Assembly: GCF_003334315.1 (NCBI RefSeq)
Contig: NZ_QOWR01000090.1
Source: Escherichia coli
GTDB lineage: Bacteria; Pseudomonadota; Gammaproteobacteria; Enterobacterales; Enterobacteriaceae
Length of the DNA stretch: 9,349 nt
Reading direction: 5' to 3' (one strand)
Shown here: positions 7,662 to 8,177 of the stretch, piece after piece
Layout of the letters: every line of letters starts with the position of its first letter
How positions within the stretch are numbered: the first letter of the stretch is position 1
Program-made: the position numbers and the translations under genes
The notes under the pieces: generated by a model
The model's database searches: none
Seen by the model: only the letters and a program-made list of their open reading frames with translations
What the model was told of the DNA's origin: nothing

Positions 7662-8080
7662 GACTGGCTCCTGATTTAAGTAAGGAGTGCAGTCTGATTT
7701 AGAAAAACAGATAAATAAAATAATGTAAACTTCAGGCGGGATAAAATTATTTATATCTAAGGCAAAGATTCAATATTCCCACAGCACACAGAAGTTTTCT
7801 GTCTTCAGGGAGAGGAGCTTCGAAAGTTCAGACGAAAAATTCCTGCGGCCCCTTTAAGAGTCAGTTGGCCGGGTTTGGTCCGCTCCTCGCTCAAAGCGGA
7901 CTAGAAGGTTAGCTTGCGTCGGACTTGGCGTATTTAAAGAAGTGCTGGTGGTGACTGGTTGTTGTGTTCCATTTCTACAGAACAAAATCACAGAAACTAT
8001 ACCCAATAGTTATATTGAATCAATGATGAGACAGCCTCATATTTATCAGAACTGGTGTACGTCCAATACAGGAGGTTGTC

Positions 8081-8170
8081 GTGCTGGTTCTCAAATGTGC
8101 GCTAGCTATTGCGGCTGTAATGGCAATTTATTGTCTTGCTGTTGTTCTTATGGATCGCCTTTCTGATTGA
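8081..8170 (+). CDS. Candidate small hydrophobic membrane peptide (29 aa: MLVLKCALAIAAVMAIYCLAVVLMDRLSD); possible type I toxin-like or small regulatory membrane protein
   Basis: Consensus SD AGGAGG (8070-8075) 5 nt upstream of GTG 8081; single predicted TM segment with charged C-terminus; candidate -35 TTGAAT (8015-8020) and -10 CATATT (8038-8043). Below the length cut-off of the supplied ORF track. No homologue recognised. Confidence 0.4.
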   Translation: MLVLKCALAIAAVMAIYCLAVVLMDRLSD

Positions 8171-8177
8171 TTTTATA

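Follow-up and report, generated by a model that had tools for sequence, protein, structure and literature searches.

Does the DNA directly upstream of a prophage hok/sok locus encode a protein, and if it does, is that protein a second toxin, a partner of Hok, or a product with a role of its own? The question is raised by a 9,349-nucleotide (nt) stretch of Escherichia coli DNA (contig NZ_QOWR01000090.1 of RefSeq assembly GCF_003334315.1; the whole stretch is hereafter called the window), which belongs to a Rac-type lambdoid prophage and in which a 29-codon open reading frame (ORF) beginning with GTG ends just before the hok promoter. Comparison with related loci favors the reading, to which a probability of about 0.6 is assigned, that positions 8081–8170 are a genuine gene for a 29-amino-acid (aa) single-pass inner-membrane micro-protein, a member of an orphan family confined to mobile elements of E. 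coli and Shigella and proposed to be a prophage regulator. A toxin without an RNA antitoxin, an accessory of Hok, and a frame without function are the less likely alternatives.

The small frame is conserved under purifying selection

An earlier, sequence-only reading of this DNA had described AGGAGG followed after 5 nt by GTG at 8081, opening 29 codons for one transmembrane helix with a charged tail, adjacent to hok and separated from it by the hok promoter. Coordinates and sequence were exactly as claimed (Table 1). The highest-scoring 19-residue Kyte-Doolittle window of the peptide reaches 2.70 at residues 6–24, its grand average of hydropathicity (GRAVY) is 1.81, and the hydrophobic stretch is bracketed by MLVLK and the five-residue tail DRLSD. 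The hok −35 hexamer lies 7 nt beyond the stop codon, and the hok/sok model that matches the hok leader was the sole Rfam match over 7600–9349. At the matching position of the E. coli CP53 chromosome, the Prokaryotic Genome Annotation Pipeline (PGAP) calls a "type I toxin-antitoxin system toxin HokD". The window contains a single AGGAGG-N5-DTG arrangement; an AGGAGG-N5-start motif appeared one or more times in 32 of 200 dinucleotide shuffles (16%), and the hexamer AGGAGG is not enriched in the window. The Shine-Dalgarno (SD) sequence and start codon of this one sequence are thus not beyond chance, and the ORF was judged to be real because of comparison with its relatives.

Two samples of loci were compared. 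The first was baited only with the hok promoter and 5' end and gave 115 usable hok loci. Full-length copies of the 29-codon form (class A) were present in 34 of these, and all 34 were intact; a 34-aa form (class B) was present in 16, a 27-aa micro-ORF (class C) stood directly before the hok promoter in 24, only a 3' fragment of the ORF remained after within-ORF recombination in 25, and nothing related was found in 16. The second sample was baited with the 29-aa peptide, and in it both the GTG start and the TGA stop were present in 79 of 79 loci; in one further copy the stop has changed to TGC, which adds two codons. In the alignment of the 34 unique class A loci the 90-nt ORF contains no indels, whereas the 200 nt on its 5' side contain indels of 14, 6, 2, and 1 nt. 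The SD varies (AGGAGG, GGGAGG, AGGAGA, or AGGGGG) but keeps the same 5-nt spacing in every lineage, even where the 5' flanks are unrelated, and also in the copy on the Shigella virulence plasmid (pINV).

The substitutions follow the same frame. By the Nei-Gojobori method (NG86), the ratio of non-synonymous to synonymous substitution rates (dN/dS) within class A is 0.30 in the ORF frame, compared to 0.71–0.73 in the other two frames, and the pooled ratio of the corresponding proportions (pN/pS) is 0.41, compared to 0.63 and 1.20. Between lineages, dN/dS is 0.16 for the window and pINV, 0.18 for the window and locus L207, and 0.19 for pINV and L207, and it falls between 0.16 and 0.45 for 20 of 21 lineage pairs; synonymous divergence is near saturation (pS 0.47–0.76), and binomial tests of the synonymous excess gave P=0.003–0.015. 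Amino-acid replacements are mostly conservative (A/V/T/S, V/I, M/V, and D/E). The L207 copy carries a one-codon in-frame indel, the pINV copy starts with ATG at the position of the GTG, and in class B both GTG in place of ATG and a change from TGA to TAA preserve start and stop. The frame, start, stop, and SD of the small ORF are therefore conserved under purifying selection; a check proposed with the sequence-only reading, namely that the frame and SD and not just the DNA should be conserved with a synonymous bias, came out in its favor.

These comparisons also bear on the possibility that the ORF has no function and is an open frame, incidentally translated, on DNA that is conserved for another reason, whether because it spread recently or because it serves as a promoter or a recombination element. 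The family is both narrow and young, the gene is often lost or truncated, the SD and start motif alone could be fortuitous, and closely related copies give a weak selection signal (dN/dS is 0.85 for the window and HannyBb). In contrast, frame, length, start, stop, and SD have survived near-saturating synonymous divergence with a significant synonymous excess, indels accumulate in the flank and not in the ORF, the ORF on pINV has not decayed while the neighboring hok leader has, and ribosome footprints cover a homologue. A frame without function is thus quite improbable.

The longest ORF over the same DNA is a 74-codon Cys-rich frame, and it or its variants are called hypothetical proteins in some GenBank records. 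As the real gene it is contradicted by its relatives, in which a 14-nt deletion takes away the start codon, indels of 1 and 2 nt shift the frame, and the length ranges from 23 to 98 codons. It has no SD ahead of it, and its pooled pN/pS is approximately 1.2, against 0.41 for the 29-codon frame, which is the one conserved. The indels and the pN/pS rule it out as a gene, and the earlier suspicion that it was an artefact can be held with near certainty.

The small gene also appears to have its own sigma-70 promoter. CATATT is invariant in all 34 unique class A loci, including lineages with unrelated 5' flanks, and TTGAAT, TTGAAG, TTGAGT, or TTGATT is found exactly 17 nt before it in 28 of the 34, as well as on Shigella pINV; in the second sample, a −35 hexamer at 17 nt is present in 63 of 79 loci. 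The spacer sequence is wholly different between lineages while the hexamers and the 17-nt spacing are kept (in four lineages and pINV), as would be expected if the sigma-70 promoter were real. The predicted leader of approximately 30 nt has no significant structure relative to shuffled sequences (z-scores of −0.6 and +0.3), and its SD is exposed. No terminator was found between the stop codon and the hok promoter, so read-through into hok is likely. The search for intrinsic terminators returned one weak hairpin within the ORF, at chance level, which was discarded.

Table 1. Positions of the small gene, its predicted signals, and adjoining features in the window
Feature	Position	Strand	Description
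Small ORF (class A)	8081-8170	+	GTG 8081-8083, TGA 8168-8170; product a 29-aa one-helix membrane protein, MLVLKCALAIAAVMAIYCLAVVLMDRLSD
Shine-Dalgarno AGGAGG	8070-8075	+	spacer ttgtc (5 nt), then GTG 8081
Predicted −35 TTGAAT	8015-8020	+	small gene's own sigma-70 promoter
Predicted −10 CATATT	8038-8043	+	17 nt from the −35; probable start near A8050, leader of ~30 nt
Mosaic unit carrying the small gene	7878-8185		~140 nt of conserved non-coding DNA, promoter, leader, and ORF
hok promoter TTGGCG-17-TAGAAT	8178-8206	+	begins 7 nt past the small ORF stop
hok mRNA leader and Sok target region	8213-8387	+	Rfam RF01794, 116.1 bits, E=2.7e-27, full model
mok (70 codons) overlapping hok	mok 8325..8537; hok 8382-8537	+	hok 51 aa
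74-codon Cys-rich frame	7942..8166	+	not a gene; frame artefact over the same DNA

Relatives in prophages and on a virulence plasmid

The class B peptide, MSDDISLAMEGALAVIAVVGVYCLVVFLMDRLGN, has 34 aa and shares 15 of 28 aligned residues (54%) with the window peptide (BLASTP E=5e-10). It is annotated in RefSeq as hypothetical protein WP_001278450.1, for instance in E. coli O104:H4. In enterohemorrhagic E. coli (EHEC) O157:H7 Sakai, where the same ORF is XECs145, it belongs to a set of 465 intergenic ORFs that showed ribosome footprints (Hücker et al. 2017, PMC5597208). In that study, the thresholds were a ribosome coverage value (RCV) of at least 0.25 and a coverage of at least 0.5. In lysogeny broth (LB), XECs145 had 79.1 RNA reads per kilobase per million (RPKM), a RIBOseq RPKM of 346.1, an RCV of 4.35, and a coverage of 0.99; the corresponding values were 121.3, 150.1, 1.14, and 0.84 in brain heart infusion (BHI), and 73.3, 1.1, 0.01, and 0.37 under cold/osmotic stress (PMC5597208).

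The class B gene, carried by Shiga toxin (Stx)-type and other lambdoid prophages, for example in Sakai and O104:H4, resembles the 29-aa form in its Y-C-L...L-M-D-R-L motif, in its predicted product, an inner-membrane protein with one helix, and in its place in the lambdoid early-right region, with no further gene between it and the hok promoter. Class B lies immediately before that promoter, and hok then follows in 72 of 73 loci. In contrast to the 29-aa form, class B starts with ATG, has an acidic 10-residue N-terminal extension, is annotated in RefSeq, lacks a promoter of its own, lies 35 nt behind another small ORF, and is separated from the hok promoter by a 22-bp palindrome. The 29-aa gene represents the GTG-start branch, with a predicted promoter of its own, of the orphan family catalogued as WP_001278450.1 and XECs145. 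The class B and L207 genes, which lack the TTGAnn-17-CATATT promoter and lie 35–49 nt behind another gene, are probably transcribed within the phage early-right operon.

Among 1.84 billion cluster representatives, a profile search recovered only 22 proteins, all of the same family, including the divergent members MLAALKGFVAILAVVAIYCLVVVLMDRLSD and MLIIKGVLAIVIVVAIYCLVVTLWERLSD; the family shares the motif (I/V)-Y-C-L-x3-L-(M/W)-(D/E)-R-(L/F/I). A scan of 100,044 species-representative genomes returned only two short contigs from metagenome-assembled genomes, likely to be carry-over of E. coli phage. PHROGs, NCBIfam, PADLOC, and PDB gave noise-level matches only (E at least 0.02), and a Pfam scan with the 34-aa homologue as query gave no family even at E≤10. 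In the literature, the peptide strings and accession numbers were found in no paper's main text, the class B peptide occurs only in the supplement of PMC5597208, and no description of a small ORF 5' of hok, nor any work on what the gene does, was found. The carriers of the family are lambdoid prophages, plus a copy on the Shigella and enteroinvasive E. coli (EIEC) virulence plasmid.

The palindrome noted above (CGATATGGGAATTCCCATATCG) is perfect and occupies 1613–1634 of locus L127, outside the window, after the class B stop and ahead of the hok −35; it also precedes the hok promoter in loci without a small gene. Because no T-run follows it, a protein-binding site seems more probable than a terminator.

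Class C (MTWPEAFTTVGIAMAVALVVYSICRWG or MNWPEAFAITGVAMAITFLVYVICRWG; 1383–1466 in L127) is a conserved micro-ORF with an SD and one predicted helix. It resembles class A in these features and in its region, 5' of class A, class B, or the hok promoter, and it is additionally found upstream of the class A gene in L017, L045, L047, L058, L088, and L108. Its ATG overlaps the stop codon of a DUF551 gene (ATGA), it is not annotated in the RefSeq record of O104:H4, and some copies have TAG instead of a TGG codon. Unlike class A, it has an acidic N-terminus and a basic C-terminus, the opposite charge layout, and the two have no sequence relation; class C was ruled out as a relative of the small gene (hhalign probability 1.6%).

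The virulence plasmid copy is present in 135 PLSDB records, such as pCP301, where it is intact and located approximately 290 nt upstream of icsP/sopA (2501–2590 of locus L210; 219920–220009 of AF386526.1). It encodes MLVLKGTLAIAAVMTIYCLIVVLMERFSD from an ATG start, with AGGAGG as its SD and TTGAGT-17-CATATT as its predicted promoter. The adjacent hok promoter and leader show visible decay, and no hok gene is left. The small gene and the hok remnant on pINV lie inside the long regulatory region of icsP, and nothing was found in the literature linking hok or hok remnants to icsP. In a second setting, represented by 13 IMG/VR loci (L276–L288), homology to the window ends at 8185 and hok/sok is replaced by approximately 980 nt, with the small ORF intact. 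The small gene therefore stays intact in two settings where hok has been lost.

The replacement segment (1290–2290 of L276) encodes, on the opposite strand, a 120-aa protein that resembles the N-terminus of TehB (NCBIfam TehB E=5e-13; the match falls well short of the family cutoff). By eye, a hairpin with flanking T-runs between the small gene and the TehB-like gene looks like a bidirectional terminator. Recombination has also reached into the small ORF: in 18 to 19 loci of the L009 type, a joint corresponding to 8148–8173 of the window leaves only the last six codons, MDHLSD, preceded by AAGGAG. Upstream of this remnant is an ORF of 83 codons, tentatively QueH by its translation. Joints within the small ORF show that the hok promoter module has been exchanged with breakpoints inside the gene.

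Toxin, hok accessory, or regulator

The sequence-only reading had offered as one option a second type I toxin, and the peptide does have the generic character of one: Hok/Gef, Ldr, TisB, Ibs, ShoB, ZorO, and DinQ are likewise small, very hydrophobic, single-helix, and carried on mobile elements, and the hydropathy values given above agree with a small hydrophobic membrane peptide. The small gene could then encode a toxin unrelated to Hok that damages the inner membrane and is restrained by an RNA not yet seen. Its short charged tail and its position next to a genuine type I toxin are consistent with this, and so is, in the main lineage, a promoter-like sequence on the minus strand, back to back with the gene's own (TTGATT-16-TATAGT, 8023 to 7996), which is present in 23 of 34 loci and on pINV and gives a layout like that of tisB/istR or zorO/orzO.

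The expected control RNA was not found. A promoter-like antisense sequence over the 3' end of the ORF (TTAACT-18-TAAAAT) occurs in just half of the variants (17 of 34). The putative divergent RNA (7989 to 7878) has no complementarity to the mRNA (74% of shuffled sequences pair as well), no direct repeat is shared between 7878–7990 and the mRNA, and 7878–7989 gave no structure signal and no Rfam match; an antisense or divergent RNA antitoxin was rejected on the unconserved promoter, the missing complementarity, and fold z-scores of approximately zero. Type I toxin genes have long folded leaders and a conserved antisense or complementary RNA, whereas here the leader is short, lacks structure, and leaves a consensus SD exposed, and the class B and L207 genes follow another gene so closely that there is no room for a control RNA of their own.

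Compared with the Hok/Gef family (PF01848), the peptide has 29 aa with a five-residue tail and no periplasmic domain, and the gene has neither an overlapping, mok-like coupling frame nor a folded Sok-type leader. No match to Hok was found in Pfam with the 34-aa homologue as query, and PADLOC and PDB gave none. A degenerate hok duplicate was considered and ruled out on the Pfam result and on an hhalign comparison of the family alignment with the Hok of the window (probability 0.3%). The small protein is thus, as far as sequence and profile comparisons reach, unrelated to Hok. Additionally, the homologue XECs145 is strongly translated in growing EHEC cultures (RCV 4.35 in LB; PMC5597208), which argues against strong toxicity at native levels. 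The toxin reading is therefore unsupported, and a second, RNA-restrained toxin is improbable.

A further possibility is that the small gene is an accessory of hok/sok, either as a cis-acting upstream ORF (uORF) on a read-through transcript or as a micro-protein that modulates Hok in the membrane. Linkage is tight: in addition to the class B loci, hok follows class A in 60 of 74 loci, and L207 and plasmid pMS20655A have it too. The stop codon is close to the hok −35 with no terminator between, and no copy was found far from a hok locus or its remnant, one replacement lineage excepted. Against this, selection acts on the peptide sequence, a constraint that a uORF serving only for translational coupling would not need, and the gene has remained intact both on pINV, where hok decayed, and in the 13 loci in which hok was replaced. 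Recombination breakpoints fall within the ORF in 25 loci, and many hok loci work without a full copy. An accessory role is therefore unlikely. Similarly, there is only a small chance that the micro-protein is a functional third component of hok/sok, as a co-toxin or as a modulator of or immunity peptide to Hok, or a stand-alone membrane toxin without an RNA antitoxin.

The preferred explanation, a regulatory membrane protein, is modeled on known small proteins. AcrZ, MgtS, MgrB, PmrR, and CydX are regulatory small membrane proteins of E. coli with 30–50 aa and one helix, often missed by annotation. The 29-aa gene resembles them in its single helix and ordinary promoter and SD signals, and they serve as the working model; in contrast to them, it is borne by prophages and plasmids and not by the core genome, and no sequence relation was detectable among the 1.84 billion representatives. 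The small gene would be an autonomous unit transcribed from its predicted promoter (TTGAAT-17-CATATT, 8015–8043) with the short, unstructured leader, and its transcript would run on into hok and end at the hok terminator. The protein would span the membrane with residues 6–24 and bind another membrane protein helix to helix, as a prophage accessory or "moron" regulator and not as a self-sufficient, RNA-controlled toxin. Partner binding is suggested as the most likely mode by the conserved Y-C-L core, the L-[MW]-[DE]-R-[LF] boundary motif, and the ordinary, unrepressed gene signals.

Several points weigh against the regulator reading. The step at which the protein binds a partner is pure inference. 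The promoter matches the consensus at only 8 of 12 positions, for which reason a generic promoter scan missed it, and it is missing from 6 of 34 variants as well as from class B and L207. The selection tests are modest in power because the alignment has 28 codons and the lineages, few in number, are related to one another, and for near-identical copies power is limited, as the value for the window and HannyBb indicates. The RIBOseq support concerns a homologue of 54% identity whose host genome carries numerous similar prophages; published footprints were found for that 34-aa form and for no strain with the 29-aa form. The two contexts without hok represent one lineage each. Finally, 65 of the 115 hok loci lack a full copy of the small gene, which is therefore dispensable for hok.

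Annotation, genomic setting, and significance

The segment 8010–8185 is present at a coverage of at least 80% in 1,546 of 5,426 complete E. coli genomes (~28%), and in 30 of these, sampled across the identity range, no RefSeq feature lies beneath the match. On the E. coli CP53 chromosome, which is identical to the window over the compared stretch (7700–8620), RefSeq annotates nothing between the major facilitator superfamily (MFS) gene and hokD. Some GenBank records do call the small ORF, as a "hypothetical protein" or "membrane protein". The earlier claim that the ORF is unannotated thus stands for RefSeq and fails for a few GenBank records, while its suggestion of a small membrane protein missing from the annotation agrees with the predicted one-helix product and the sampled genomes.

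The boundaries of the mosaic unit that carries the small gene are visible in relatives. On the left, homology begins at 7877/7878 in phages Tritos, Evi, and mEp460_ev081, whose upstream cargo is unrelated; on the right, it ends at 8185 in the 13 loci with hok/sok replaced. Approximately 140 nt of conserved non-coding DNA at the left of the unit (7878–8015) always accompanies the class A gene and tolerates indels of 14, 6, and 1 nt; it has no Rfam match and no fold signal on either strand. In the window, positions 1405–7661 are a cargo island of five genes, encoding a BCCT transporter, a DUF2254 protein, a LysR regulator, a gamma-glutamylcyclotransferase, and an MFS transporter, which sits after replication and prophage DUF977 genes and before the small-gene/hok module and a DUF1367-DUF1364 (nin-like) region. 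The same spot holds quite different genes in other phages, for example an acetyltransferase or hypothetical proteins. The window ends in an insertion-sequence (IS) terminus (9262–9349) that resembles the end of IS2. Repeats of this sequence were found in 4,404 of 5,426 E. coli genomes (median, three copies), and in the window the insertion cuts the DUF1367 gene to 89 aa (9006..9275), compared to 600 nt (199 codons) in E. coli CP53.

Overall, approximately 28% of complete E. coli genomes and essentially every matching Shigella/EIEC virulence plasmid sampled (135 records) carry a gene that is absent from RefSeq annotation, which shows how 29-codon genes with a GTG start escape annotation pipelines. 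The DNA directly 5' of prophage hok promoters usually codes for a micro-protein rather than acting as spacer, and this matters for studies in which hok is deleted or cloned, such as those of hokW-sokW (PMC8621323). If the micro-protein were after all a third component of hok/sok or a stand-alone toxin, the pINV copy upstream of icsP would have been kept for Shigella envelope or virulence physiology. As the evidence stands, the small gene is a clean and testable member of the class of small membrane proteins, with a promoter, a ribosome-binding site, a motif, natural knock-outs, and contexts without hok.

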